Of a DNA stretch of 64,000 nt, positions 27,362 through 64,000 are shown one piece after another. Positions within the stretch are counted from its first letter, which is position 1, and each line of letters begins with the position of its first letter. This DNA is from Alphaproteobacteria bacterium. GTDB taxonomy: Bacteria > Pseudomonadota > Alphaproteobacteria > SP197. The stretch spans positions 1,312,001-1,376,000 of the forward strand of contig OZ219747.1 in assembly GCA_964291265.2 (NCBI GenBank), in the 5' to 3' direction. The notes beneath the pieces are model-generated. The model had not been told where the DNA came from. It searched no databases and saw only the letters and a program-made list of their open reading frames with translations. A program made the position numbers and the translations under genes.

Positions 27362-28560
27362 GTGTGCTGGGCAGCGCCCAGATCAGGTGGGTTCAAGTCC
27401 CACTGGCGCTCGGGTAAGGGGCGCCATATCCAAAAGCGGGGGTCATTCCTCGCTGGCCGGGGTGAGCGAATAAGCGACGCCCTAAACGGGCACGAAGTTG
27501 GAAACGACGGACACTGCCAAGGGAAGAGCTAAGTTGGTTCACTGTCGAGAGACAACCGGAGGGCAGGGTGTCCACCGTGAGGTGGAATCTGAAGGGCTTG
27601 CGGAGAAGTACCGGGCCGTAATCGAGGGGGCGACCCCATGATGAATCGGTCGGCCAAAGACGGGGCAAGGTCGAGCCGGCACTATGGCGGCGAAGGCGTT
27701 CTTACTCACCCGTCGCACCAAGGTGTTTGCGAACGGCACGGTACGGAAGATCTGGACGTGACCCCAGGAGGGCTCGTCGTGTTCCCGGGTGGCACCGGGA
27801 TAACGGCCCCTATAAGCCGAGAGGCGAAGTGAGAAAGGATGCACGGCGAGCAATCGGACAACCGAATAGTACCACAAGCCCGGTGAAAGCCGGGTGACCG
27901 CGCGAGCGGCGACCGGGTGGGTCGGGGAAGGCGGTTGGCAGAGGTGGTTGGTGAGAGACGGTGAAGGAGCGAGTAAGGATCATGACGCGGACAAGTTCCA
28001 TGAGCGAAAGACCCGGACGTCATGGGCCGAGGAGACTGGTTCACTGGCTCAACCTGACGGGAGAAAGGAAGGTCCACTCACTGGTGGACAAGGTGTACAA
28101 GCGGAAGAATCTTGAGGTGGCCTGGGAGAAGGTCAAGCGCAACCGCGGTGCCGGTGGCGTGGATGGAGAGAACCTGGCGGCGTTCGAGGCATCGCTTGAT
28201 GCGAATCTCGATCGCTTGCACCGAGAGTTGCGGGACGGTGATTACGGTCCGCAGCCGGTTCTCCAACGCCTGATTCCCAAGGCGGGCCAGCCGGGGAAGC
28301 TACGTCCTCTTGGCATCCCGACGATTTACGATCGGGTGTGTCAGCAGGCGCTGCTGAACCGGCTGGAGTCGATCTTCGAGCCGATTTTCGATGATGCCAA
28401 CTTCGGGTATCGGCAAGGGAGGTCCGCCCATGGAGCACTACGCAAGATATGGAAGGAACTGGACGAGGGCCGGGAGTGGGTTGTTGACGCGGATTTGCAG
28501 GATTTCTTCGGATCCGTGGACCACGCGAAGCTTCTTGAGCTTGTGAACCAGCGCGTCAAC
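27362..28560 (+). mobile_element. Inner group II intron (RT-encoding), 3'-truncated
   Basis: GTGTG start (+/-1 nt), about 600 nt of structured RNA, then the RT ORF. No DV or DVI is present. Confidence 0.8.
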
Positions 28561-28575
28561 AATCCACAGGGCTGA
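27961..28575 (+). pseudogene. ltrA: Group II intron reverse transcriptase/maturase, truncated after RT domain 3
   Basis: AWEKVKRNRGAGGVDG, RPLGIPTIYDRVCQ, GYRQGRS and VVDADLQDFF motifs; no PQG or YADD. Confidence 0.9.
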
Positions 28576-48153: not shown

Positions 48154-49100
48154 TCACCCTTATGGCCATGAAAGGGCAAGGATGGCCTCCGTTTTCACCC
48201 GGGGCGCCTTGCCAAGCGGCCTGGCCGTTCTCGTCGCCATGCTCCCGGAGGGACGAGTTCCGTGCAGCACCTCGTCGACTTCGCGCGCCGTTCGGTCAAG
48301 GCCGTCAGGGGTAGGCAATCCGATTCCCGAGGAACGGGAGAGGCGCACTGAGTGCGCGCGCCGGACTGCTGCCATGGCTTGCGACGAGGCCAACCGTTCA
48401 GGATGCACCTTTTCTGCCCGCGTAAGCGTTCGGCCGTGCGGTGATGGCTGATTTTGGTTGGTTTGGGGCTTGCTGACTATTGTCTGAGAAAGTTCTGGTA
48501 AACCCGTTTGGTCTCGATTATGGTCGGGGCCATGGAGACTTTCGACGAGGCGTGCGGAGCGGCACAGCAGCTGACGGGAGGTGGCGACGGCCTATGTCTG
48601 GCGCCATCGGCCTTGTCATGCGAGGTGTCTGACTGGCGTGCGCTCTATGAGGCGGAGCGGGTCCGTGCTGACACATTGCAGTTTGATCTCGACCGCACTC
48701 GTGATCAGCTCAAGGAGGCTCGCGCGGAGGTGCGGGCGGCTCGCCGGGATGTGAAGCGGGGGCAGACCCTGGCGGAGGCGCTGAAGCGGGAAAGGGACGC
48801 TCTGAAGCGTAAGAACGCTGAACAGGCGAGCGAGCTGAGGAAGCTGCGCGGGACGCGTGAAAAGCACGCGAAGGCGCGCTTCGGGTCGAAGAGCGAGAAG
48901 CGGAAGAAGAAGGCAGGCACAGGGAACAAGCGGGGTCAGCAACCTGGCAAGAGCGGCCACGGGCGCACCCCGCGTCCGAAGCTTGAGGAGAAACACGAGC
49001 GCCATGATCCACCGGCATCGCAGCGCACGTGCCCGTGTTGCGGCGAGCCCTATGTGGCCAACGGCAGCCACGAGACCTCGATCATGGAGGTCCATGTCAA

Positions 49101-50762
49101 GGGTGCAGTTCTCGTATGGAGAAGCCAAGTCATTGATTTATCACGGTTGTGCGGTCGCGATGGAGCGGCGAATACGGGGTTTCGTGACAATTGCCCGTTT
49201 CAGGACCGGATTTTGTCACGATGGCAGGGCTTGGCGGTGGATGCGGGAACGCTCCGCACCGCAAGATGCGATATGATGCTGGCTTGAAACCACAACATCA
49301 GGAGCGCTCCCATGTCAGTGTCACAGCTTCGGCCTTCCGCGTCCATCGATCTTCTCGGCTTGCCGCCTCGGGTTGTCGAAGCGGTCACGCAAGTGACCGC
49401 GGTGTGTCATCGACAGCTTGGTTCAGAGCGCTCTGCCGAGGCCTTCGAGGAAGCGGAGCGGCGGGTGCTTGAGAGCGTGCACGCGCTTGGTTGCGAGATC
49501 CTGGGTGCCTGTGCCGAGGCCCGGGACGACGGTGCGCCCCGGATCGAACGGGACGGGCAGAACTGGTTCCGTGTGGCGCCGACGCCGAAGACGATCATGA
49601 CCTCGCTCGGCCCGGTGACCTTTCGGCGTGCGCGCTATCGCACCGGCGGGCACTGCCGGTCGCTGATGCCGGTGGACGAAAGCCTGGGCCTCGTCGACGA
49701 CGACCTGACACGGCCGGCGGCTCAGCTTGGGCTGATGATGATGGTCCACTGCACGGCGCGGGAAGCGGAGGCGTTCTTCGGCAAGCTCGGCGCCATGACG
49801 CCGTCTGTGAGCACCTTGCAGCGCTTGAGCCTGACCATGCAGGAGCGTTGGGAACGTCTCGGTCCGCAGGCCCTGGATGGCATCCGGGAAGCCGAGGACA
49901 TCCCGCAGGACGCGGTCACCGCCTCGGTCTCGCTCGACGGCGTCATGGTGGCGCTGCGGGCCGGCGAGGACGGCCGTAGCGAGGCCTGCTGGCGCGAGGC
50001 GGCCTGTGGCACAGTCTCCTTCCACGATGCCGACGGTGAGCGCCTGAAGACCGTCTATCTCGGCCGCATGCCCGAGCGCGGCAAGTGCACGCTGAAGGTG
50101 CAGCTGGCAAGCGAGGTCGCGCATATCAGGCGCGAGCGTCCCGAGATCAGGATCAGCGCCATCGCCGACGCCGCCGCCGACAACTGGACCTTCCTCTCTG
50201 GTCTTGAACCCGAAACCGAGGTGATCGACTTCTGGCATGCCTGCGAGCATCTGCGCGTGGTGGCCGACCATGCAGCGGCGCCCCACTGGTTCGAGAAGTA
50301 CCGCGAGATCCTGCGTCACGACCCCCGCGGCATCGACAGGGTGATCCGGGCGCTGCGCCACCTTCGCGACACCGCCAAGCCGGCGGGCCGAGCCGACATC
50401 GACAGGGAACTGGCCTTCTTCCGCAAGCATCGCCACCGCATGCGCTACCACGCGCTGAAGCAACAGGGGATCGCCATCGGCTCGGGACTTGTCGAGGCAG
50501 CCAACAAGACCCTCGTCACACAGCGCATGAAGCGCTCCGGCATGCGCTGGCGCATCGTCGGCGGACAAGCCGTTCTCACCTTCCGCGCCCTCATCAAATC
50601 CGGCCGCTTCGAGAGCGCGTGGACAGCCATGATCGGGGCAGACGACGCACCAGCCAACGACAACATCAACCCACATCACACCCCGGCGCTGGCCGCATGA
50701 GATGAAACAATTGAACTAAGCCCATAACTTAAGCGCATAACTGCCATACTAGACTCACACCC
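49101..50762 (+). mobile_element. ISKra4/ISLre2-like (IS256-related) element with an 8-bp TSD
   Basis: CATGTCAA at 49093-49100 and 50763-50770; imperfect IRs GGGTG....TCT.GTATGG. Confidence 0.9.
49312..50700 (+). CDS. ISKra4-family (UPF0236-like) transposase
   Basis: SLDGVMV, IADAA, DFWHACEHL, IGSGLVEAANK and RMKRSGMRW motifs. Confidence 0.9.
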   Translation: MSVSQLRPSASIDLLGLPPRVVEAVTQVTAVCHRQLGSERSAEAFEEAERRVLESVHALGCEILGACAEARDDGAPRIERDGQNWFRVAPTPKTIMTSLGPVTFRRARYRTGGHCRSLMPVDESLGLVDDDLTRPAAQLGLMMMVHCTAREAEAFFGKLGAMTPSVSTLQRLSLTMQERWERLGPQALDGIREAEDIPQDAVTASVSLDGVMVALRAGEDGRSEACWREAACGTVSFHDADGERLKTVYLGRMPERGKCTLKVQLASEVAHIRRERPEIRISAIADAAADNWTFLSGLEPETEVIDFWHACEHLRVVADHAAAPHWFEKYREILRHDPRGIDRVIRALRHLRDTAKPAGRADIDRELAFFRKHRHRMRYHALKQQGIAIGSGLVEAANKTLVTQRMKRSGMRWRIVGGQAVLTFRALIKSGRFESAWTAMIGADDAPANDNINPHHTPALAA

Positions 50763-51627
50763 CATGTCAAGGCTCATGTCCGGCGGATTGACCGTGGGCG
50801 TTGGCGCCGTGGTTGTCAGTGTTCGTCGGCGCCTGGGGAGATCATCGCGCCGCCACCTTTGCGCTTGTTTGCGAATACCCCCTTTGGCAACAGTGTCTGG
50901 GCATGCGTGCTCTATGAGCGCTTCGCCTGCTTGCGTCCCCTGCGCCGGGTCTCGCGATGGCTCAAGGACCAGGGACTGCCGATGGCGCCGGGAACGATCG
51001 CTGGCGGCATGAAGAAGATGACGCCGATGTTCGCGCCTCTCGCGCAGGCCATCCTCGATCATCAGAACCGGCTGACGGTGCGCCACGGCGACGAGACCAG
51101 CTGGCGCATCCAGTCCCTCAAGGCCTCGGGGCGCTCGCAGAAGGCCTGGCTGTGGACCGCGGTCAGCGCCGACTCCGTCTTCTTCCTCATCGATCCGTCA
51201 CGCAGCGCCCGGGTGGCCATGGTGCTGTTCGCCTCCACCAAAGGTGTCGTCTTCCTTGTCGTCGATCGTCACGCGGCCTACAAGAAACTGGAGCGCGTGC
51301 TCGATGGCAAGGTGATCCTCTGCTTTTGCTGGGTGCACTCCAGGCGCGATGTGATCGAGGCTGCGGCAGGCCAGGAGGGGCTGGAAGAGTGGTGCGACAG
51401 GTGGCTCGACAGGGTCGCGCTGATCTTCACACTGAATGGGCAACGGCTGAAGCACTACGATCCCGCACGGAAGCGTCAGTCAGCGAGGTTCAATGCCCTG
51501 CAGAAGGACCTTCGTGCGGCTGTCGAGGCGCTGTTCAGGCAGGCTCAGGAGGAACTCGACGCCTTGCCCGAGGGTGCACGCGAAGCGAAGCCCTTGCGCT
51601 CCCTGATCCGTCACCGCGAGGGACTAT

Positions 51628-53410
51628 CCCGGTTCCGTCACCAAGGGGAATGATGGCGGCATGATGGCGTAATCTTCAGCCTCGGGCGCAGACAAGGTTC
51701 ACTTTGATTGCGCTGTTGGCGGAATCGTGTCGCATTTGGGATAGTTTTTCGGCTCATATTGGCAGGCCAAGGGAGCCGAAGGCCGTTTTTGGCGTTCGTG
51801 TCTATGCCGGGACATGCGCCAGGCACACCCCTGGCGACGCCTTCGGGAGACGCTGTGATCAGACTGTGATGGGATGCAGCACAAGCTATCCCGGCGGCGG
51901 CGCCTGGGCCGCGGCACGCAGGTTGACGAGAGTGCGGGCGAACACCTCCTGCAAGGGGAAGATCGAGGCAAAGGAGAGGCGAAGCCGGCGCACCGTCTTC
52001 GTCACCCTGCCGGCAAGCTTGAACAACCGGGAGCGTATGGTGTCGACGCGCCAGCGGGCACACTCGGTGCCGTGCAGGCCGACACGGCGCACGATGTCGA
52101 CGATGGCGCCGGCAAAGGCCGAGAAGTCCATGCGCAGCTGGTTGGCCCGCATGACATGGCACGACGTGCGATCGGAGAACAGCCACAACTGCTGATCCTT
52201 GATCCGGTTCTCCATGTCTCCCCGAGCACAGTACCTCTGCTCATAGAGTTCCCGAGCGCCGACCTCCTTCCTGGAGATGCTCGTCACAATGTAACGAGCG
52301 TTCTTGCCGCGCGGTCCCGGTAGCCATTCCGCCTTGGCCACCACTCGCCGCTCGCGGGACCATGACTTCTGCGTGCGATACCGCAGATCCCGATACCGTC
52401 TGGATGGCTTGCCGAACACCAGACAACGCCGCCTCGACTTGTTGAGTGCCTTCGTGACCATGCTGTTCAAGCGAGGATTCTGACCATATCCAAAGACATA
52501 GTCGACACCATGGTCCTCGCACCAGACCATGATGTCGTCCGTGCCGAAGTCGGCATCCCCCCGCACCACGATCCGTGTCCGGGGCCACGTGCCGCGGATC
52601 TGCTCAACGATCCGTGACAGCTCATCCACCGAGCCATCCGCCGCGCCATGGTCGGCCGTCCGCAACCGGCAGCGCAGGATGTGCTCGCCGCAGACGACGA
52701 ACAGCGGCAGGAAGCCATGGTGGTCGTCATAGCCGTGGAAGTACTTGCCCTCCTGGTCGCCATGCACCGGATCGTCGGTGGCATCAAGATCCAGAACAAT
52801 CTCCTTGGGCGGTTCCGCATGGCTCTCCAGAAACAGGTCCACAAGAAGACAGTCCAGTGCTTCGTGATCGGCCACGATCTTCTTGTAGCGGTCCAGGCTC
52901 GCCTCATGCGGATCGCCGAGTTCCAGGCGGTTCAGCGTGCTCGAGGCCGCCAGCACATGTCCACGGTCCCGCTCGCGAACCCGTCTCGCTCCCTCCACAT
53001 CGTCGATCCCGCAAGCCAGGGCCAGAGCAGGGTCGTCACGCAGACGGTCATGATCGTTGAGATCCTCGTAACCCAGAGCCAAAGCGATGATGCGCTGCGC
53101 CACCAGTGTCGTCACATCGTGTTCAATGCGACTGGGATCACGATAATCAACAAAAGCGCCAGCAACACGCTCCGTCACGTTGAAAAGCCTGTCTGCTTCC
53201 CGCAACAGAAGCGCACCACCGTCGGAGGTCATGCGGCCACCATCGAAATTGGCCACAATCTGCCGCCGTCCGAGACCTTCAAACTCAAGTTGTTGTGCTG
53301 GACACTGTGTCGCCATGTGGATGGGCTCCTTGGTGCATGTAACTCATTGGTCTTGTTCATATATCACAAACCCCATCCCCATCAATAGGAAACTTGGTGA
53401 CAAATCCGGG
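51628..53410 (-). mobile_element. IS1380-family element, copy 2 (1783 bp)
   Basis: Same IRs as copy 1, but the flanks CTAT and TTAG do not match. Confidence 0.92.
51886..53316 (-). CDS. IS1380 transposase
   Basis: Near-identical to 21560-22990. Confidence 0.95.
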   Translation of the reverse strand: MATQCPAQQLEFEGLGRRQIVANFDGGRMTSDGGALLLREADRLFNVTERVAGAFVDYRDPSRIEHDVTTLVAQRIIALALGYEDLNDHDRLRDDPALALACGIDDVEGARRVRERDRGHVLAASSTLNRLELGDPHEASLDRYKKIVADHEALDCLLVDLFLESHAEPPKEIVLDLDATDDPVHGDQEGKYFHGYDDHHGFLPLFVVCGEHILRCRLRTADHGAADGSVDELSRIVEQIRGTWPRTRIVVRGDADFGTDDIMVWCEDHGVDYVFGYGQNPRLNSMVTKALNKSRRRCLVFGKPSRRYRDLRYRTQKSWSRERRVVAKAEWLPGPRGKNARYIVTSISRKEVGARELYEQRYCARGDMENRIKDQQLWLFSDRTSCHVMRANQLRMDFSAFAGAIVDIVRRVGLHGTECARWRVDTIRSRLFKLAGRVTKTVRRLRLSFASIFPLQEVFARTLVNLRAAAQAPPPG

Positions 53411-53755
53411 TTAGGGTGTCGGCGCCGAAGGCATGAGGCCTTGGTGCAGGAAGGTCGATGTCGAGCGACGCAGCAAGATCAGGCAGCCCCGCGCGTGCCG
53501 AGGCAAGGCACAGCTCTCCCTTCGCGTTGCGCCACTCCTCGCGCTCAGCACAATCCCCGCGCCAGGGACGAGCGTGTGCTGCCCTCGGCAGCCGACGCCG
53601 CCTTCAGCCAGTCAACCGTCGTCGCAGATGTCGAAAGCCGATCCTCATGGACCACTATGTAAGGCCTCATGAACGGCGAGTTAAACACGGCGTTTGACAG
53701 GCCAAGGGGAGTGTGGTTATGGCCGAATCGGATATCCTGTCAGCGGGCGTGGACA

Positions 53756-54121
53756 ATGCAGGAGCGTGAAGGTTTGCCGTCCGGTATGACGCGGGTTGAC
53801 GATGCGCTGCTGCGGCGGATGACGGTGGCTATCGTCGAGGCGGCCGATCCCGAACAGGTGATCCTTTTCGGCTCCCGCGCCCGCGGTGACGCCGGGGCGG
53901 ACTCGGACGTCGATCTGGTGGTCGTCGAGGCGGAGCCGTTCGGGCCGGGCAGGGACCGTGGGGCCGAAGAGACGCGCCTCTGGCGCGCACTCGCGAAATT
54001 CCATGTTCCGAAGGATATCCTAGTCTACAGCTTGGACGAGGCCGACCGCTGGCGCGGCTCCCTCAATCATGTGCTCGCGCGCGCGTTGCGCGAAGGCAAG
54101 GTGCTCTATGAGCGACCTTGA
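53756..54121 (+). CDS. Minimal nucleotidyltransferase (MNT) antitoxin
   Basis: LFGSRARGD...DSDVDL and REGKVLYE motifs. The start is uncertain (53756 or 53786). Confidence 0.88.
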   Translation: MQEREGLPSGMTRVDDALLRRMTVAIVEAADPEQVILFGSRARGDAGADSDVDLVVVEAEPFGPGRDRGAEETRLWRALAKFHVPKDILVYSLDEADRWRGSLNHVLARALREGKVLYERP

Positions 54122-54506
54122 GCAGGCGCAGGAGCTGTTCCGCGCGGCTGAGAGAGACATTTCGGCGCTTCGCGGCATGGGCGATGCAGCCGTCTTCGCC
54201 GACGAGATTTTCGGCTTCCATGTCCAACAGGCGGCGGAGAAGCTGTTCAAGGCATGGCTCGCCTCGAAGGGCGAAACCTACCCGCTGTCGCACGATCTGG
54301 CGGCTTTGCTGGACATGCTGAGCGCCGACGGAGCGGAGGTCGCCCGTTTCGACGGGTTGGTGGACTACACCCGCTACGCCGTTCGCCTGCGTTACGCGGA
54401 CGCCGACCCGGGCACGTGCCCGCTTGACCGGCTTGGAGCAGTCGAACGGGTGGAAGCGTTAATGGTGGCCGTCCGGCACCGATTGGCGGAAACGGAAGCA
54501 GGCTGA
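54108..54506 (+). CDS. HEPN domain protein paired with MNT
   Basis: FHVQQAAEKLFKA, SHDL and YAVRLRY motifs; overlaps the MNT gene. Confidence 0.88.
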   Translation: MSDLEQAQELFRAAERDISALRGMGDAAVFADEIFGFHVQQAAEKLFKAWLASKGETYPLSHDLAALLDMLSADGAEVARFDGLVDYTRYAVRLRYADADPGTCPLDRLGAVERVEALMVAVRHRLAETEAG

Positions 54507-54508
54507 CG

Positions 54509-54525
54509 GTAAGCGTTCGGTCACG
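54509..54525 (+). mobile_element. IS66-type terminal repeat split by the outer intron (continues at 56301)
   Basis: Rejoining the exons gives GTAAGCGTTCGGTCACG|CGGTGAT, compared with GTAAGCGTTCGGCCGTGCGGTGAT at 48422. Confidence 0.75.
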
Positions 54526-56300
54526 GTGCAGCGAGTCTAGCTGCTGTACTTGCGGGTGTGAGCCCCGCCGGCGCAATTCTCAGTTTGGCGCCGTAGCATA
54601 TCCCACTGGTTCAGGGGTGACCCTGGACCAGCGAGCTGGGATGTAGAAGCCGTTGTGGGCTGGTTGGAACGCAGTGTCCAGCCGGTTCGGTCAGCCAGGA
54701 CGGCGAGCAAACCGGAGGGCCGCAGCGAAAGCGAACGATTGTATGAAGCCACGAAATGACGCTCCCACATGAAGCTGATTTGTGGGGTAAACGGGAATGC
54801 CAAAGGCTTCGTGACTGCCCGATGGCCAGAGTCGATGCGGAAGAACTGAGGTGCACGCATTGGGTTCCCCGGGGTAGAGACGACGGCAATCCGGGACAGT
54901 ACAGCAGTGAAAGATCGGAAGGTCAGGAGGACAGACAGGATGAAGTGACCCTTGAATGTCAAGGACCGCGTCTATAACCAGGATTGGGAAAGGACGCGGA
55001 GTCCTCCTGACTGGCGGATGAGGTCGAGTAAGCGTTGACGGGCGGGACAACACAACCCGTCCCGAGCGAGGACCTCAGGGCTCAGGTGGCCTATGCGGCA
55101 GGTCAAGTCGGTACTCAGAGACCGGCACCGACCGACAGACTGCAAGGTCGAAGGACGGAGCAAACGCTCGGAGATGCCGTGGGTATGGATGGGTCAGCCT
55201 TGACCATGGCGTGTCCGGCGGAAGGCTCCGCACCGAACTCCAAGTGGGTGCCTGATGCTTGAAGCCGTACCCGGGAAAACCGGACGTACGGAATTTTAGG
55301 GGGGCGTGCAGCGAGTCTAGCTGCTGTACTTGCGGGTGAAAGTCCCGCCGGCGCAATTCCCAGTTTGGCGCCGTAGCATATCCCACTGGTACAGGGGTGA
55401 CCCTGGGCCAGCGAGCTGGGATGTAGAAGCCGCTGTGGGCTGGCTGGAACGCAGTGTCCAGTTGGTCTGGTCAGCCAGGGCGGCGAGCGAACCGGAGGGC
55501 CGTAGCGAAAGCGAACGATTGTACGAAGCCTCGAAAATGAAATTTCCCACATGAAGCTGACTTGTGGGGTGTTGGGAACGCCAAGGGCCTGCCCCCAGCT
55601 TGGTGGCCAGAGTCGATGCGGAAGAACTGGGGAGCACGCATCGGGTTCCCCGTGGTAGAGACGACGGCAATCCGGGACAGTACAGCAGTGAAAGGCCGGA
55701 AGGTGAGGAGGACAGACAGGATGAAGTGACCCTTGAATGTCAAGGACCGCGTCTATAACCAGGACTGGGAAAGGACGCGGAGTCCTCCTGACTGGCGGAT
55801 GAGGTCGAGTAAGCGTTGACGGGCGGGACAACACAACCCGTCCTGAGCGAGGACCTCAGGGCTCAGGTGGCTTATGCGGCAGGTCAAGTCGGTACTCAGA
55901 GACCGGCACCGACCGACAGACTGCAAGGTCGAAGGACGGAGCAAACGCTCGGAGATGCCGTGGGTATGGTCGGGTCAGCCTTGACCATGGCGTGTTCGGC
56001 GGAAGGCTCCGCACCGAACTCCAAGTGGGTGCCTGATGCTTGAAGCCGTACCCGGGAAAACCGGACGTACGGAATTTTAGGGAGGCTGCTGGAAACGTGG
56101 TCTATGGTAGTTCTGCGACCCCGCCCGCAATCGAAAGAGCGGTGCCGGACAAAGCCTCTGCCTACGGATGCGCGCGCCAGCGGCCTACCCGACTGCTGGA
56201 AACGTGGTCTATGGGAGAACTGCGACCCCGCCCGCAATCGAAAGAGCGGTGACGGACAAAGCCTCTGCCTACGGATGCGCGCGCCAGTGGCCTACCCGAC
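54526..56300 (+). ncRNA. ORF-less group II intron, outer (54526-55305 plus 56194-56300; 887 nt)
   Basis: GTGCA 5' end; DV GAAGCCGTACCCGGGAAAACCGGACGTACGGAATT; DVI ending CCTACCCGAC; EBS1 and EBS2 complementary to the 5' exon. Confidence 0.88.
55306..56193 (+). ncRNA. ORF-less group II intron, inner (888 nt, complete)
   Basis: Close paralog of the outer intron with intact DV (about 56042-56078) and DVI ending CCTACCCGAC; no RT ORF. Confidence 0.9.
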
Positions 56301-57058
56301 CGGTGATTGTTGGTGATATTCACCGGTTGAGGATGCGTTTCCAGTCCTTGCGCAGAGGCCTCAGCTAGATGTCTTTTTCGGCTTGTCGTGTTTCTTGTGC
56401 GCATCGTAGCGGCCTCGTCCTTGGGTGGTTCCGACACGGATCCATCCTGACGCCTTGTAGACGGCTCCTGTGTAGCGCGGTATTCGGACGAAGGTTTCGA
56501 TAGGGGTGCGCGTATGGCATGACGGTTTCATTGGCACTACCCTTTGGGCGGGTCCCTCTCGTGGCGATCAGACGGCGAAGGGCAGTTGAGCAAGACCATC
56601 CCACGCTAGAATCCTTGAATGAAGCCAATAGTGCACAGATGAGCCAAGTTTTCATCATGGACATATTCAGGCGGCAAGGGTCTGTCCCTCCCGGAGTTTG
56701 CTGACCTCGTCATCGAGCGAGTGGAGGATGCGTCCGAGCTTGGATGGCACCTTGTCATCGAAGGCCGCCGCCAGGGCAGGGCTGAGTGTCCGCCGGTGGA
56801 TGCGGCACCAGGCAAGAGCGATCCTCTGCCCGGTTTGCGTCAGACGATAGCGATGGGATGACGGTATCCTCTCGATGAGGCCCCGCAGGCGCAGGCGCCG
56901 CAGGTCATAGGTGGCTTGACGTGAGCCATGGGTGTCGGTCGACAGGAGATCGGCAACGGCCTCTCTCATCTGGCGATTGTTGAAGCCCATGAGGAGGAAG
57001 ACATGCAGCAGGATGGCTGCGAGGACTGCCTGGATGCGTGGAGCACCGAAGCGCTTAG

Positions 57059-58841
57059 CCCGGTTCCGTCACCAAGGGGAATGATAGTGGCATGATGGCG
57101 TAATCTTCAGCCTCGGGCGCAGACAAGGTTCACTTTGATTGCGCTGTTGGCGGATTCATGTCGTATTTGGGATAGTTTTTCGGCTCATTTTGGCAAACCA
57201 AGGGGATCGAAGGCCGTTTTTGGCGTTCGTGTCTATGCCGGGACATGCGCCAGGCACACCCCTGGCGACGCCTTCGGGAGACGCTGTGATCAGACTGTGA
57301 TGGGATGCAGCACAAGCTATCCCGGCGGCGGCGCCTGGGCCGCGGCACGCAGGTTGACGAGAGTGCGGGCGAACACCTCCTGCAAGGGGAAGATCGAGGC
57401 AAAGGAGAGGCGAAGCCGGCGCACCGTCTTCGTCACCCTGCCGGCAAGCTTGAACAACCGGGAGCGTATGGTGTCGACGCGCCAGCGGGCACACTCGGTG
57501 CCGTGCAGGCCGACACGGCGCACGATGTCGACGAGGGCGCCGGCAAAGGCCGAGAAGTCCATGCGCAGCTGGTTGGCCCGCATGACATGGCACGACGTGC
57601 GATCGGAGAACAGCCACAACTGCTGATCCTTGATCCGGTTCTCCATGTCTCCCCGAGCACAGTACAACTGCTCATAGAGTTCCCGAGCGCCGACCTCCTT
57701 CCTGGAGATGCTCGTCACAATGTAACGAGCGTTCTTGCCGCGCGGTCCCGGTAGCCATTCCGCCTTGGCCACCACTCGCCGCTTGCGGGACCATGACTTC
57801 TGCGTGCGATACCGCAGATCCCGATACCGTCTGGATGGCTTGCCGGACACCAGACAACGCCGCCTCGACTTGTTGAGTGCCTTCGTGACCATGCTGTTCA
57901 AGCGAGGATTCTGACCATATCCAAAGACATAGTCGACACCATGGTCCTCGCACCAGACCATGATGTCGTCCGTGCCGAAGTCGGCATCCCCCCGCACCAC
58001 GATCCGTGTCCGGGGCCACGTGCCGCGGATCTGCTCAACGATCCGTGACAGCTCATCCACCGAGCCATCCGCCGCGCCATGGTCGGCCGTCCGCAACCGG
58101 CAGCGCAGGATGTGCTCGCCGCAGACGACGAAGAGCGGCAGGAAGCAATGGTGGTCGTAATAGCCGTGGAAGGACTTGCCCTCCTGGTCGCCATGCACCG
58201 GATCGTCGGTGGCATCAAGATCCAGAACAATCTCCTCGGGCGGTTCCGCATGGCTCTCCAGAAACAGGTCCACAAGAAGACAGTCCAGTGCTTCGTGATC
58301 GGCCACGATCTTCTTATAGCGGTCCAGGCTCGCCTCATTCGGATCGCCGAGTTCCAGGCGGTTCAGCGTGCTCGAGGCCGCCAGCACATGTCCACGGTCC
58401 CGCTCGCGAACCCGTCTCGCTCCCTCCACATCGTCGATCCCGCAAGCCAGAGCCAGAGCAGGGTCGTCACGCAGACGGTCATGATCGTTGAGATCCTCGT
58501 AACCCAGAGCCAAAGCGATGATGCGCTGCGCCACCAGTGTCGTCACATCGTGTTCAATGCGACTGGGATCACGATAATCGACAAAAGCGCCAGCGACACG
58601 CTCCGTCACGTTGAAAAGCCTGTCTGCTTCCCGCAACAGAAGCGCACCACCGTCGGAGGTCATGCGGCCACCATCGAAATTGGCCACAATCTGCCGCCGT
58701 CCGAGACCTTCAAACTCCAGTTGTTGTGCTGGACACTGTGTCGCCATGTGGATGGGCTCCTTGGTGCATGTAACTCATTGGTCTTATTCATATATCACAA
58801 ACCCCATCCTCATCAATAGAAAACTTGGTGACAAATCCGGG
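57059..58841 (-). mobile_element. IS1380-family element, copy 3 (1783 bp)
   Basis: Same IRs; TTAG on both flanks (57055-57058 and 58842-58845). Confidence 0.93.
57317..58747 (-). CDS. IS1380 transposase
   Basis: Near-identical to the other two copies. Confidence 0.95.
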   Translation of the reverse strand: MATQCPAQQLEFEGLGRRQIVANFDGGRMTSDGGALLLREADRLFNVTERVAGAFVDYRDPSRIEHDVTTLVAQRIIALALGYEDLNDHDRLRDDPALALACGIDDVEGARRVRERDRGHVLAASSTLNRLELGDPNEASLDRYKKIVADHEALDCLLVDLFLESHAEPPEEIVLDLDATDDPVHGDQEGKSFHGYYDHHCFLPLFVVCGEHILRCRLRTADHGAADGSVDELSRIVEQIRGTWPRTRIVVRGDADFGTDDIMVWCEDHGVDYVFGYGQNPRLNSMVTKALNKSRRRCLVSGKPSRRYRDLRYRTQKSWSRKRRVVAKAEWLPGPRGKNARYIVTSISRKEVGARELYEQLYCARGDMENRIKDQQLWLFSDRTSCHVMRANQLRMDFSAFAGALVDIVRRVGLHGTECARWRVDTIRSRLFKLAGRVTKTVRRLRLSFASIFPLQEVFARTLVNLRAAAQAPPPG

Positions 58842-60517
58842 TTAGGCGGATACCCGACGTTCGTCGACGACGACAGGTTGATGCAGGGCATCGAAGGTGG
58901 CTGCTCCGATCGGACAGTCGTGACTGATGCGTTGGACGTCGAGAAGACGTCGGGTGGCGTGGAAGCCGACCTCCTTGAGGTCATCGAGGTTGATCAGTCT
59001 GCGCTTGATGCCGAAGTCGTACGTGTTGTTGATCACCTTCTGCGTTCGCACACGGCCTTCCTTGAAGGACTGCTTGATACGCGAATGCTTGTAGTCCACA
59101 TGCAGCGACGGCTGCACGCCGTCGGTGATGACGCGGGTTCTGAACCGCGAGGTGGTCCGCCGTGTGATACGGCGGTTGAAGATCAACTGCACATGGTCGG
59201 GACGGCCGATGTCAAGGTTCTCGCGCATGATCTCCTCGAACAGGATCCGGCCGTGAAGAGGACGGTCAAACACCTGTGTGAGCGCACACTCCGCCTGGAG
59301 GATCGACAGGTCGTAGCGGATGCCCCTCATCGCGTCCTCGTCGGTGAAGGGATGGGGAAGCCGTGTCGTCCACTTGCGGAACAGCGCGTCGATCCGTGAG
59401 GCATCGATCTCCCCGGCCACGGCCTGCATGATCCGAGGATCGGCACAACTCAGGATGCCGTTGTCGAGAGCCTCGAAGGCCACCCCGCGCTCGCTCAGCT
59501 GACGCTTCAGGTATTCGTGACCATTGAGGCACAGCCTGGCGTTGTACGGGAAGTAGGAACAGAACTTGATGAAGCAGGGACCGAAGTCGTCGTCCACGAT
59601 GTAGATGTACCAGGCATTGACCATCGCCGTGCTGTGAACCAATTCGCAGGACGCCCTGCCCGTCGCCGGATCAACGCGCTTCTGCGTACGCAGGACACGG
59701 GCCTTCTCCTGGGCCTTGCCGACGTAAAGGACACCTTCACCGCCAGACCACAGGCGAAGATACTTCTGTGTCACATCGTCCTTGCGCTCCCCCTTCCTGA
59801 AGCTGACAAGGTCGACACCCTGGTCCCGGGCAAACCGCTCCAGGCGCGTCACAAACCGCCGCGTCATCGGCGCCATCAGAGCCGATGACGGAACAGGATT
59901 GTCCCGGACCTCCCGAAAGAACCAGGCCGCGCCACCACCCGTCTGCAGCATTGGCACATAGGCGTTGAGATACAGCCGGTCCAGACACTCAAGCTCCAGC
60001 GTCACGTGATTCTCAAGGACCTCGCCAACAGACCGTGCTATCGTCATCTTCTGGCCTCCGAACGATGGGTTCCCCACATGGTTATCATAACCAACCCAGC
60101 CCTCGGGCTGTATCAGGCGGATCACACCGCAGAGCGGAACAGCGGGCTCAAGTCCTCTTTCTCACGCGATGCCTCTCTTCGGTCCGAGGCATAGCCTCAT
60201 TAGGTCCGTGGACGCGGGGATGTGAACATCCGCGTCGGTCTGGCCCTTGCGGTCAGGATGGCCATGACACCTGCCCGGCGCGCACGGGCCGTGTCAGGCG
60301 TCATCGACGCTGAGCCTCACCGTGAGCCAGGCTTGACCCTTTTTTGTCACCGAACTCGCCAATCAATTGGTCCGGCTGCCTGCACAGTCGAGACCACGAT
60401 CGCCTTCACGAATGGTTCCTCACCCGTCTGGTTGCGCCGGGGAAGTCAAGGCCACGTCTTGCCTTCAAGGCCTGCATAAATTGCGCACCGCAGCGCTTAC
60501 GGTGGAGCCATGCCTTC

Positions 60518-60979
60518 TTACAGAGCAATCGCATCCCACAGACACCACGCAAGCAAGCCGAGGAACAGGACGCTGAACGAAACAGGCAAGAAAGTTTCCA
60601 CTGTGGTGAGTTTTGAGTAGAGCTTTAGATCCCTGCCCTCTCCCAACAACTGCCACTCACGCACGAAAGGTCGATAGGGAAGTTGCTCCTCAAGCTCGTG
60701 CAACATCTTGAACTTGCCGCTATTGAGCTGGCGGTAAGATCGGATAACCACACCCCAAGAAATCGCCACGATGCAACCTACAAGGATCAAAAGCAGCAAA
60801 ACTACAGTGCCGGCATCACCACCTACTCCGAACCGCGTTACCAAACCGGCGAGGACAAGAAGAGCGGAAAGGAGGCTGACATAAAGTTGGTTTGCTCTTT
60901 CTCGCCTCTGACTTACCCTGTCGGCAAGCTCAGCGTGAAGCTTGTATAATTCAATGATTATGAGTTTTTCACCAGCCAT
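60518..60979 (-). CDS. RipA-like small membrane protein (probable defence effector)
   Basis: YKL..E.ADRVSQRR..AN, two TM segments, SYRQLNSGKFK...ELE..LP, EW and a C-terminal TM; lower GC; GGAGG RBS. Confidence 0.75.
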   Translation of the reverse strand: MAGEKLIIIELYKLHAELADRVSQRRERANQLYVSLLSALLVLAGLVTRFGVGGDAGTVVLLLLILVGCIVAISWGVVIRSYRQLNSGKFKMLHELEEQLPYRPFVREWQLLGEGRDLKLYSKLTTVETFLPVSFSVLFLGLLAWCLWDAIAL

Positions 60980-61259
60980 CACCGGCCTCCCTTGTTGCCA
61001 ACCGAATTGCCTCATTTATCCGTTTGTCATAGGTCGTATAGACTCCCGCGACAATCAATACAACACTACATGGCGTTATCCGTCACTGGATGGCGTTTCG
61101 CAATGCAGAAGGGGAAGTCGCGTTATGGACTGGATCATTCCAAGGGGATGAACAGCGCCTCAAGCCAAAATACGTTCTCGAATTCAACAATTTTAGGAGC
61201 CGATCATACAGGTCACTATAGTTCCACAAATGGCTGATGAAGAGGCACGGTGTTCTCAC
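60969..61259 (-). pseudogene. TIR domain (ThsB/DUF1863-like) pseudogene
   Basis: LFISHLWNYSDLYDRL...DPVHNA...*RITPCSVVLIVAGVYTTYDKRINEAI, with an in-frame TGA at 61083-61085; truncated. Confidence 0.72.
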
Positions 61260-61519
61260 GGTGTCATCTCTACATGGGAGGCCACAAATTGAAGTATCAA
61301 CTTGGGACTGTCAAGATTCAAGATTCTGGTTAGTGACAGCCGGAGCGCCGTCACTAAGCGGGTCTGGACGAAGGCCGCTTCGCGGCCATGGGTGCTTGTG
61401 ATCGGGCACTGTGCTGAGCGTTCGATGTGAGTGGTTGTGTTGAGAGATCGACGTTCCTGATGTTTCGATGATCTGATCGAGGCTCCACACTTCCTGGTCT
61501 CCCGGGTGTTCGGGAGGAC

Positions 61520-62200
61520 AAACAACCTCCAGGCGGCGCTGCCGGGCAAAGTCCGGGATCACCGCCAGCTCGGCTTCGGAGAACAGCACCCCGGGCTCGA
61601 GCCACGGCGTCTCGCGCCCGTGCGGGGCCAGGACCGACAGTCTCCAGGCAATGACGGCGCGCGGGCGATAAGCCCGTTCGACGCGTTCCCGCGTGCGATG
61701 GTCTTCCGTCTCCACGTCGAAGCCGGACTTGAGGATGCGGAAGAACTCCTCGATGCGCCAGCGCGTCCGGTATCAGCCCAGAGCGGTTGCCACGTGCATG
61801 TCCTCAGTCCCCCTTCAGCCGGACGCTCGGCGGTCAGCAGCAAGCTGGTGCAGCGCCTCGTCGTCGTCGCCGGTTCCGGCCTCGCAGGCCAAGACCGCGA
61901 ACAGAGACACAGGCACCGGCTTATGCTCCTGTTGCGGCAGTATCACCGCGATCACCGCCGTGCGGATCTCGAGACGGACAACACGCTCCTTGCAGGCGCG
62001 CAAGACGCCAGCGGCCGGGATCGTCAGCTCCGTCCCCGCCATGGGCCGCCGCGCGGACGCGTCCTTCCCAGCGCGTGGTGCATCGACATCATCGCCTTCC
62101 CGAGCCGGCGATCGTCGGCCCCGCCTACCGGTTCGTGCGAAACCGGGCCGGGGTCCTCCAGCAGGCAGGCCAGCCTGGTGTGGCCGGGAATGGTGTCTGT
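61520..62200 (-). pseudogene. IS4-family (Tn5-like) transposase remnant
   Basis: WRIEEFFRILKSG (YREK-like), LLLT and RETP..EPGVLFS..EL spread over several frames; boundaries approximate. Confidence 0.7.
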
Positions 62201-62204
62201 CGGG

Positions 62205-63029
62205 GTAACTGCCCAGGTCTGATTTTGCCGAGTCCTGACGGGAGGTGGATTGATGGCTGCGGTCTGATGGCGCCGAGGAGGGATGTCAGAAGCGCAGTTT
62301 CGGGATCAGCTGTATGGGATCGGGGTGGGCCAGTGTTTCGAGGACATTCCAGCCCTGTTTTCGGGCGATGGAGATGACGGATCGCAGCTTGGCGAAGTCC
62401 CATGCGCCCTGCATGGATCGGAAGCCGCCCGAGATTTTCTGGCGCAGCTTGCTCATGCGGAAGTCTTGCTCGGCCTGGTTGTTGGAGAACGGGACTTGCG
62501 GGTTGGTGAGGAAGCGCAGGCAGCCGTCCTTGTGCTTCTGAAGGCGAAGCGCGAGGTTGTGGCCGATGCGGCGTTTTCGTCGTCCGCGCTTTCCGGGCTG
62601 GAGCGGCGGCCTCTGTTCGTGGGAAGCGATGGCCTGCTCGAGGATCCTGTCCCAGGTTTGCGAGATGCGGGCGAGGAGTGAAGCGGGGATGTCGCGGTCG
62701 TTCTTGCGGGCGAAGCGGGCGGCTCTGTTGGCACGGATGAGGAGCCTGTGCATGGCGGTGGCCCAGTCTTCCTTCTCGGTCTCGATCAGAGCCTGGAGTT
62801 CGCGCAGGTGATGGGCGTTGCAGGCACCGTGGCGCACGCCCTCGAGAGTGAAGTAAGTGGCCAAGTCGTCATGGATGACGATGCCGTTGAGCGTCTCGTC
62901 GATGTGTTTGCGCCCGGTGGCGATGCGCAGGATGGTGAGCAAGGGGGTGCACAGCACATGGAGCCAGTGGGTCTGGCCGTTGATGCGGATGCCGGTCTCG
63001 TCGAGGTGTTTGACCGGTGCTTGGGTGCG
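62205..63029 (-). mobile_element. tnpC: IS66-family element, 3' part (tnpC C-terminus 63029-62286), interrupted by a group II intron
   Basis: KHLDETG, IHDD, CNAHHLREL and NNQAEQDFRMSKLRQKISGGFRS motifs; terminal GTAACTGCCCAG at 62205. Confidence 0.88.
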
Positions 63030-63421
63030 GTGTGCCAGGTGAACTGGCGGAAGGTAGGGGGTGAAAGTCCCCTGGAACGAAGGAGTAACCAAACCACGTT
63101 TCTCCGCGAGCCGTGCGTCGGTTCCCGCGAGGGGGCAGGCGAAGCGTCGGTAGCGGTGCGGATGGGCGGGGCTAATGAGCACCGAAAAAGCAGTCATCCG
63201 GGGTGCCGAGGCTTTCGTACCGGTCGAAGGCAACATCGCAGGCATCGATTTGGTGAGATGTCGACGAGCGGTGTCCGAGAACCCATGCACGTCCGTACGC
63301 CTTCTGTTGGGACCCTGGGAGGTCTTCGAACTATCCCGCCTGTCGTGGCGGGATCGTGTAGGGAAAGGAGAAAGCCGAAGCCTATGATGGATGGTTTGAA
63401 GAAGTCGGATGGGGCCGTAGG
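63030..63421 (+). ncRNA. Outer group II intron 5' part (DI-DII), inserted antisense in IS66 tnpC
   Basis: GTGTG start; GGGTGAAAGTCCC; EBS1 CGTACC (63216-63221) and EBS2 AGCACCG (63178-63184) pair with the 5' flank. Confidence 0.85.
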
Positions 63422-64000
63422 GTGTGCTGGGCAGCGCCCAGATCAGGTGGGTTCAAGTCCCACTGGCGCTCGGGTAAGGGGCGCCATATCCAAAAGCGGG
63501 GGTCATTCCTCGCTGGCCGGGGTGAGCGAATAAGCGACGCCCTAAACGGGCACGAAGTTGGAAACGACGGACACTGCCAAGGGAAGAGCTAAGTTGGTTG
63601 ACTGTCGAGAGACAACCGGAGGGCAGGGTGTCCACCGTGAGGTGGAATCTGAAGGGCTTGCGGAGAAGTACCGGGCCGTAATCGAGGGGGCGACCCCATG
63701 ATGAATCGGTCGGCCAAAGACGGGGCAAGGTCGAGCCGGCACTATGGCGGCGAAGGCGTTCTTACTCACCCGTCGCACCAAGGTGTTTGCGAACGGCACG
63801 GTACGGAAGATCTGGACGTGACTCCAGGAGGGCTCGTCGTGTTCCCGGGTGGCACCGGGATAACGGCCCCTATAAGCCGAGAGGCGAAGTGGGAAAGGAT
63901 GCACGGCGAGCAATCGGACAACCGAATAGTACCACAAGCCCGGTGAAAGCCGGGTGACCGCGCGAGCGGCGACCGGGTGGGTCGGGGAAGGCGGTTGGCA
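63422..64000 (+). ncRNA. Inner group II intron 5' RNA (runs off the window end)
   Basis: Near-identical to 27362-27940, which leads into an RT ORF. Confidence 0.85.

Follow-up and report, generated by a model that had tools for sequence, protein, structure and literature searches.

We suggest that an ORF-less group II intron (B), nested in its near-identical sibling (A), was guided by its exon-binding (EBS) loops to the junction of domains V and VI (DV, DVI) of A, and likely retrohomed one by one into six of the seven A copies in this genome, with a reverse transcriptase (RT) probably borrowed from an unrelated intron class of the same genome. We put the probability of this reading, which is built on sequence comparison and folding, at roughly 70%.

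The element lies on the forward strand of the window, by which we mean the whole stretch of 64,000 nt that was analysed (Table 1). What looks like a tandem repeat had been read in the first-pass annotation as intron B (55306-56193) inserted in sibling intron A (54526-56300), and these boundaries were borne out. Intron A begins with GTGCAG and ends with CCCGAC, measures 887 nt without B and restarts with TGCTGG at 56194; B measures 888 nt. The two are ~93% identical overall (729/782 positions in the 5' parts and 102/107 in the 3' parts). The longest sense-strand stop-free stretch in either is 77 codons, and the minus-strand ORFs over the introns, which reach 239 aa, gave no RT match. An empty A copy at C2:3658598 has the uninterrupted site GGGGGC/TGCTGG, which fixes the ends of B and shows that it inserted without target duplication. 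The original placement of B between DV and DVI has to be corrected, since the folds show that the first 7 nt of A's domain VI precede it, so that B interrupts the 5' strand of this domain immediately distal to the branch-point helix. The complementarity of each intron's EBS1 and EBS2 to its own 5' flank was confirmed for A and for B, with five Watson-Crick pairs and one G-U in the EBS2-IBS2 helix of each.

Table 1. Features of the twintron and its upstream genes; positions count from the first letter of the window.
Feature	Position	Strand	Remarks
Nucleotidyltransferase gene	53669-54121	+	PF18765/PF01909
HEPN gene	54108-54506	+	PF05168; ends 20 nt before A
5' exon of A	54509-54525	+	First 17 nt of IS66-type terminal inverted repeat
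IBS2 of A	54512-54517	+	Within 5' exon
IBS1 of A	54520-54525	+	Within 5' exon
Outer intron A, domains I-V and first 7 nt of domain VI	54526-55305	+	RF02003, folds
EBS2 of A (GACGCT)	54758-54763	+	Complement of 54512-54517, one G-U; family covariation
EBS1 of A (CGTGAC)	54810-54815	+	Exact complement of GTCACG
EBS3 of A (G)	54877	+	Pairs with +1 C at 56301; column from unbiased covariation scan
Domain-IV-start hairpin of A, loop ACTCAGAG	55107-55126	+	Candidate RT-binding site
Domain V of A	55260-55298	+	AGC triad 55263-55265, GAAAA loop, AC bulge, extra AA bulge; single and consensus folds
IBS2 of B	55292-55297	+	Is the 3' strand of A's domain V
5' strand of A's branch-point helix	55299-55305	+	Pairs with 56290-56297 around bulged A 56294
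IBS1 of B	55300-55305	+	Inside 5' strand of A's branch-point helix
Inner intron B, complete, ORF-less	55306-56193	+	Branch A 56187; RF02003 68 bits
EBS2 of B (GAAATT)	55539-55544	+	Flank pairing, family covariation
EBS1 of B (GCCCCC)	55591-55596	+	Exact complement of GGGGGC
EBS3 of B (G)	55658	+	G-T wobble with +1 T at 56194
Domain IV hairpin of B	55888-55907	+	Same as A's
Base A in B's own domain VI (GGAGGC; intron A has GGGGGC)	56083	+	Mismatch to B's EBS1, helix kept
Remainder of A's domain VI	56194-56300	+	Branch A 56294; ends AC
3' exon of A	56301-56501	+	IS66-type end continues; 88-92% matches at 10 other loci over 180-200 nt

There is next to no chance that the twintron is merely a mis-assembled tandem repeat. 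The genome is very repeat-rich and no contig examined spans the whole element, but six loci carry it between different flanks, an empty allele exists, the EBS segments match their sites, a separate twintron is found in another genome, and a contig from run X4 (maybe the assembly's own source) crosses the A-B junction without differences.

The six copies of B in the genome show 0 differences, and each of them occupies the identical position within an A. The 4.8 Mb contain 7 occurrences of the exact B target, all of them within A, with six sites filled and one empty; in the empty-site A (C2:3658598) an IS has inserted 20 nt downstream of the site. The earlier proposal that B is specialised on its sibling is thus upheld, with 6/6 copies in A and a target confined to A. 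The other six A copies (A2-type) carry EBS1 GGATCC and EBS2 GATGCT with matching flanks, have C at EBS3 and G at +1, and have left 8 empty sites of their own target in the genome. The five A2-type hosts of B differ at 13 sites, and the A of the window is ~4% away from them; against such diverged hosts, zero differences among the B copies have a binomial p of 1.2e-4 if sites are independent. Since the A hosts differ while the B copies are identical, B likely homed repeatedly and recently into existing A copies, and the same argument, from an identical inner and a diverged outer intron, is made for T. elongatus in the sections of PMC2882425 consulted.

It is quite improbable that B inserted only once or twice and that the twintron was mobile as a unit from then on, with B forming a side arm of A's domain VI while A branches. 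Structure would permit this, as B is distal to the branch helix, which in a constrained fold forms across B at a cost of 2.5 kcal/mol, and two head-to-tail twintrons do occur at one locus. It is the copy pattern alone that disfavours such movement: all B copies are identical, yet no two A hosts are, and 5 differences separate the two A copies of the tandem. Tandems can also be explained by re-homing at the 5' junction, as in the account of RmInt2 available in part from PMC4615759. A spread of B by DNA-level gene conversion between repeats, with no RNA homing, is very improbable. The 93% A-B identity and the long repeats that make up the loci would suit it, but conversion tracts should homogenise the adjoining A, which varies within 90 nt of the junction, and the site-matching guides would be left unexplained.

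Under the preferred reading, repeated RNA-guided homing of B into A, the twintron would be transcribed, perhaps via read-through from the HEPN gene, and B would splice out first. This order would be favoured because transcription reaches B's EBS1 ~290 nt past the junction, whereas the competing partner strand in A's branch helix follows only at ~990 nt. As long as B is paired with its splice site A should be inactive, since that pairing takes up one strand each of A's DV (the 3' one) and branch helix (the 5' one); A would then fold after B has left, and exit the IS66 repeat. The low cost of forming A's branch helix across B weakens the case for a strict splicing order.

The GGAGGC sites in B's own domain VI are occupied in 0/6 cases, compared to 6/7 for the GGGGGC sites of A (one-sided p = 0.004, for sites that are non-independent and, in B, younger). 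The duplex of B's EBS1 comes to -12.5 kcal/mol with A's site and to -6.2 kcal/mol with B's own, and the GGAGGC variant may reduce insertion into B itself.

Both 5' ends match Rfam RF02003, the D1-D4 model of domain I, with 61.4 bits for A and 68 bits for B at a cut-off of 49. In the folds, domain V has an AGC triad, a GAAAA loop and a 2-nt AC bulge, plus an extra AA bulge, and domain VI is long, with a bulged A seven bases before the intron end. Neither A nor B matched RF00029 (DV/DVI) at E up to 1, and both are absent from the 16 RF00029 matches in the genome (150/255 candidates scored), which is a limit of that model and not a defining feature of the group II class. The consensus ends of group II introns are 5' GUGYG and 3' AY; here the 3' end is AC and the 5' end GUGCAG, with A as the fifth base throughout the family.

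The segment UCAGUUU (54580-54586) pairs with AAGCUGA (54772-54778), with alpha-prime in a hairpin loop. According to the parts of PMC3753933 consulted, an alpha-prime in a hairpin loop, a 5-nt DV loop and a long D6 are group IIF traits. A and B are like the IIE/IIF introns described there in the first two of these and in having EBS1-3, and like IIF in their long, structured domain VI. Unlike IIE/IIF in the same sections, the family is 827-904 nt long, compared to 450-700 nt without the ORF, and has the extra AA bulge in DV; unlike IIF, it has no intron-encoded protein (IEP) by which a class could be assigned. Given this length and the missing class F IEP, we do not file the family as IIF. When the Id region was folded from single sequences, A and B did not agree on one structure, and the EBS positions therefore rest on covariation.

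The complementarity of every well-filled alignment column with 23 flank positions was scanned without bias in 60 family members, three tandem second copies and one recombinant having been removed. The nine best column-flank pairs join EBS1 with -1 to -5, EBS2 with -11 to -13 and the EBS3 column (55658 in B) with +1; no EBS2a signal came out of the scan. With one member taken per EBS1 type (n=19), Watson-Crick pairs amount to 100/114 for EBS1, 69/95 for EBS2 and 16/19 for EBS3, compared to shuffled means of 49, 29 and 6, respectively, and the observed counts were reached by 0/10,000 shuffles. The fixed-column score for EBS2 is conservative, as the A of the window scores 0 there through a one-column shift. 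The covariation between EBS and flank that was to be looked for in other copies is thus found for all of EBS1, EBS2 and EBS3. As to the idea of a family of exchangeable guides on one scaffold, the common scaffold and the varied guides stand, with 19 EBS1 types from several phyla, while nothing points to a swapping mechanism; the guides look to have been altered by ordinary loop mutation, as in T. elongatus.

A DV pattern returned 94 family loci in the genome collection, from ~31 assemblies as counted by accession prefix. The start-end pairs measure 827-904 nt in 64/66 cases, the other two being longer because of other insertions and dropped, and the labels on the family tree span five phyla. 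No full-length member from the genome collection contains an RT gene, in line with the earlier notion that the family is probably non-autonomous. A less strict DV pattern is estimated to match 2,400 stretches in metagenomes, of which 120 were retrieved. At least 650 nt of upstream sequence was present at 62 loci, of which 56 have domain I within 950 nt of DV and the remaining 6 gave no RT match; the sole RT near any of the 62 (at L205) is part of a host intron, so that family RT carriage is 0/62 among these informative metagenome loci. RT-bearing cousins with a different DV would escape such searches, as the patterns were built from ORF-less members. B gave no match in plasmid or phage collections, the DV patterns gave none in viral contigs, and a sample of 400 genomes from the phylum contained no instance of the DV pattern. 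The twintron junction was found neither in 22 genomes of the genus nor in metagenome contigs, and DVI twintrons of this exact form therefore rest on two genomes.

The first-pass annotation had also proposed looking for an RT-bearing relative with the same DV/DVI. None was found, and the helper is therefore probably of another class. The genome consists of 2 contigs and has a completeness rating of 100%. Its 16 full RT genes are all of one type, of which there are also two fragments, and a further fragment, of 153 aa, is of a different type; the only intact RT belongs to another intron class than A and B. The family profile hits 26 segments in the genome, none of them at an RT locus. Intact RTs are carried by 5/5 other host genomes checked, and 2/5 of these were confirmed to have an RT of the same clade as this genome's (25 of ~160 RT matches examined). 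A hairpin at the start of domain IV occurs in 20/22 distinct family sequences, a count that leaves out 4 rows without the anchor motif. Among RT-intron loci it is present in 3/15, and these three make up precisely the clade to which this genome's RT belongs (shuffle rate no higher than 2%). As the family and L003 were already in view when the motif was defined, L271 and L276 are the only fresh tests; in broader metagenome loci it is present in 31/107. Protein binding by domain IVa is stated for IIA introns in the available portion of PMC2882425. We consider the helper likely to be the genome's intact RT of an unrelated class, which shares the domain-IV hairpin with the family and would bind it there.

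Alternatively, B may have homed as proposed with the help of a lost or unassembled long-domain-VI (class-F-like) RT, which would be a better fit to the ribozyme; we regard this as unlikely. The family DV/DVI weakly match the RT introns L286 and L290 (22 bits), the ribozyme has IIF-like traits, and a truncated RT of that kind at C2:1340105, which is 48% like the RT clade with long DVI, may be a relic of the true helper. However, only the N-terminal 153 aa of the latter are left, yet the identical B copies point to very recent activity; the completeness rating of the genome further argues against such an RT, and introns of the L286/L290 type are without the domain-IV hairpin.

L045, found in another genome, is a twintron whose insertion point in DVI is homologous to that of B. 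The L045 inner and outer introns resemble each other at 93%, but A and B at only 72%; in the tree, each inner intron groups with its own host, both for A/B and for L045. The six differences from their hosts that B and the L045 inner intron share comprise five EBS positions and one DVI base (G-to-A). As nothing but these is shared, separate origins are the simpler reading and a common origin was set aside, although complete gene conversion with the hosts may mask one. The EBS3 of the L045 inner intron is a mismatch, and that of B only a wobble. The inner EBS1 of L045 (CCCTCC) pairs perfectly with its own site, and self-immunity as a family-wide rule was accordingly rejected.

L205 is a relative that interrupts an RT intron, and its loops match the DV end of that intron. 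Further to that, 7/10 hand-picked loci with intron-like flanks lie beside or within RF02005-type introns (the Rfam type of this genome's RT intron), and one guide type of the family lands in an RT reading frame. We tentatively propose, at somewhat short of even odds, that the family is an old, cross-phylum one with no RT-bearing member, that it recruits the RT of an unrelated class through a domain-IV hairpin mimic, in a SINE-like manner, and that it was repeatedly aimed at the DV-DVI tails of introns, those of siblings included.

From its copy number and EBS matches we infer that B was mobilised by an RT in trans, as in a T. elongatus-type twintron. According to the parts of PMC2882425 consulted, TeI3 (F3) in TeI4 (F1) is likewise a case of sibling introns split into EBS families, in which an ORF-less family homes into a conserved sibling site and the inner introns are identical and the outer ones diverged. 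The T. elongatus site, however, is described there as lying in domain IV near the ORF start, whereas here it is the branch-point stem in domain VI, and that genome has RT-bearing siblings and visible ORF remnants, whereas A and B are both ORF-less, have no cognate RT gene in the genome and belong to a lineage that spans phyla. The pattern of a retargeted sibling parasite is thus supported, with a published precedent in T. elongatus, from which the DVI site and the missing cognate RT differ.

Other known systems share some features, as far as the consulted excerpts go. RmInt2 of Sinorhizobium meliloti (PMC4615759) likewise has an IS inverted-repeat target, head-to-tail copies and a two-base IBS1-IBS2 linker, but encodes its own class D RT and is not a twintron. 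Tr.e.I7/I8 of Trichodesmium (PMC4649490) are an intron within an intron, for which sequential splicing was demonstrated; unlike here, the partners are distantly related, both carry ORFs and the site is in domain I. Archaeal introns within introns, in nested arrays, occur in Methanosarcina (as summarised in PMC4424553). The self-inserted lycophyte cox1i1149g2 (PMC7049729) resembles A and B in its near-identical inner and outer group II introns, but it is organellar, its site is in domain IV, the inner copy is degenerate and its splicing was not observed. PMC12350094 speculates that ORF-less introns of a phage, 40-50% identical, are moved by one RT. Published cases exist of retargeted ORF-less siblings, of twintrons, of IS-repeat targeting and of tandem copies; in the literature covered, part of it in excerpt, no report was found of the A/B family or of a bacterial intron that targets domain VI of a sibling.

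The family, with its unusual domain V, escapes RF00029 and accounts for an estimated ~2,400 stored metagenome stretches. If an unrelated RT does move it via the shared hairpin, this would break the usual rule of intron RNA-protein co-evolution and offer a direct test of what an RT must recognise. At the same time, 19 natural guide sets on one scaffold provide a ready table of targeting rules, and insertion into the branch-point stem is a clean test case for ordered splicing.

IS66 elements have terminal inverted repeats, an 8-bp target duplication and an IS66 transposase. The A of the window sits 17 nt inside an IS66-type inverted repeat, whose uninterrupted motif has 87 matches in the genome, including 24 perfect empty sites; 22 elements bounded by this repeat have direct repeats agreeing at 7-8 of 8 positions. 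IS66 transposases (PF03050) are present in the window, and no partner end for the IS end that holds A was found within it. The nucleotidyltransferase-HEPN pair is a possible read-through source for twintron transcription; 0 sigma-70 promoter-like sites were found, compared to 0.8 in shuffles. This pair (53669-54506), directly upstream of the IS end, is likely a toxin-antitoxin module. A dense transposase cluster extends over 48422-63290 of the window, with IS66, two DDE_Tnp_1_4 copies, a UPF0236 protein and, at 60518-61015, a gene for an 8xMP membrane protein.

Remnants truncated at the 5' end, which keep only the last 68-76 nt of the intron, lie at C2:3544651-3544718 and 417017-417092; the former (68 nt) lies in a second IS66-type repeat, with its junction precisely at the 5' splice site of A. 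Two family copies (C2:3659398-3661347 and 1767668) have one and the same IS end inside domain VI, after a TATG motif; at the first of these the whole element is present, with an insert of transposase size, and a short duplication is seen. Tandem head-to-tail copies with exact junctions are present at C2:3769211-3772762, L050 and L079.

A second ORF-less family of ~660 nt occupies 16 places in C2 (e.g. 857509-858171); it is 94% like an ORF-deleted version of the RT-bearing intron and has kept the same domain-IV hairpin. A third intron type, starting with GTGTGC, is inserted in the RT-bearing class at 63422-64000 and 27362-28566 of the window, one copy being ORF-deleted and one having a truncated RT of another class. 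Elsewhere, a single Binatia assembly (L048, L066 and other loci) carries ~40 family copies of three guide types, one of which hits an RT reading frame, and at L064 and L111 a family member has entered domain I of a sibling around position 195, after which the 5' ends of the two recombined.
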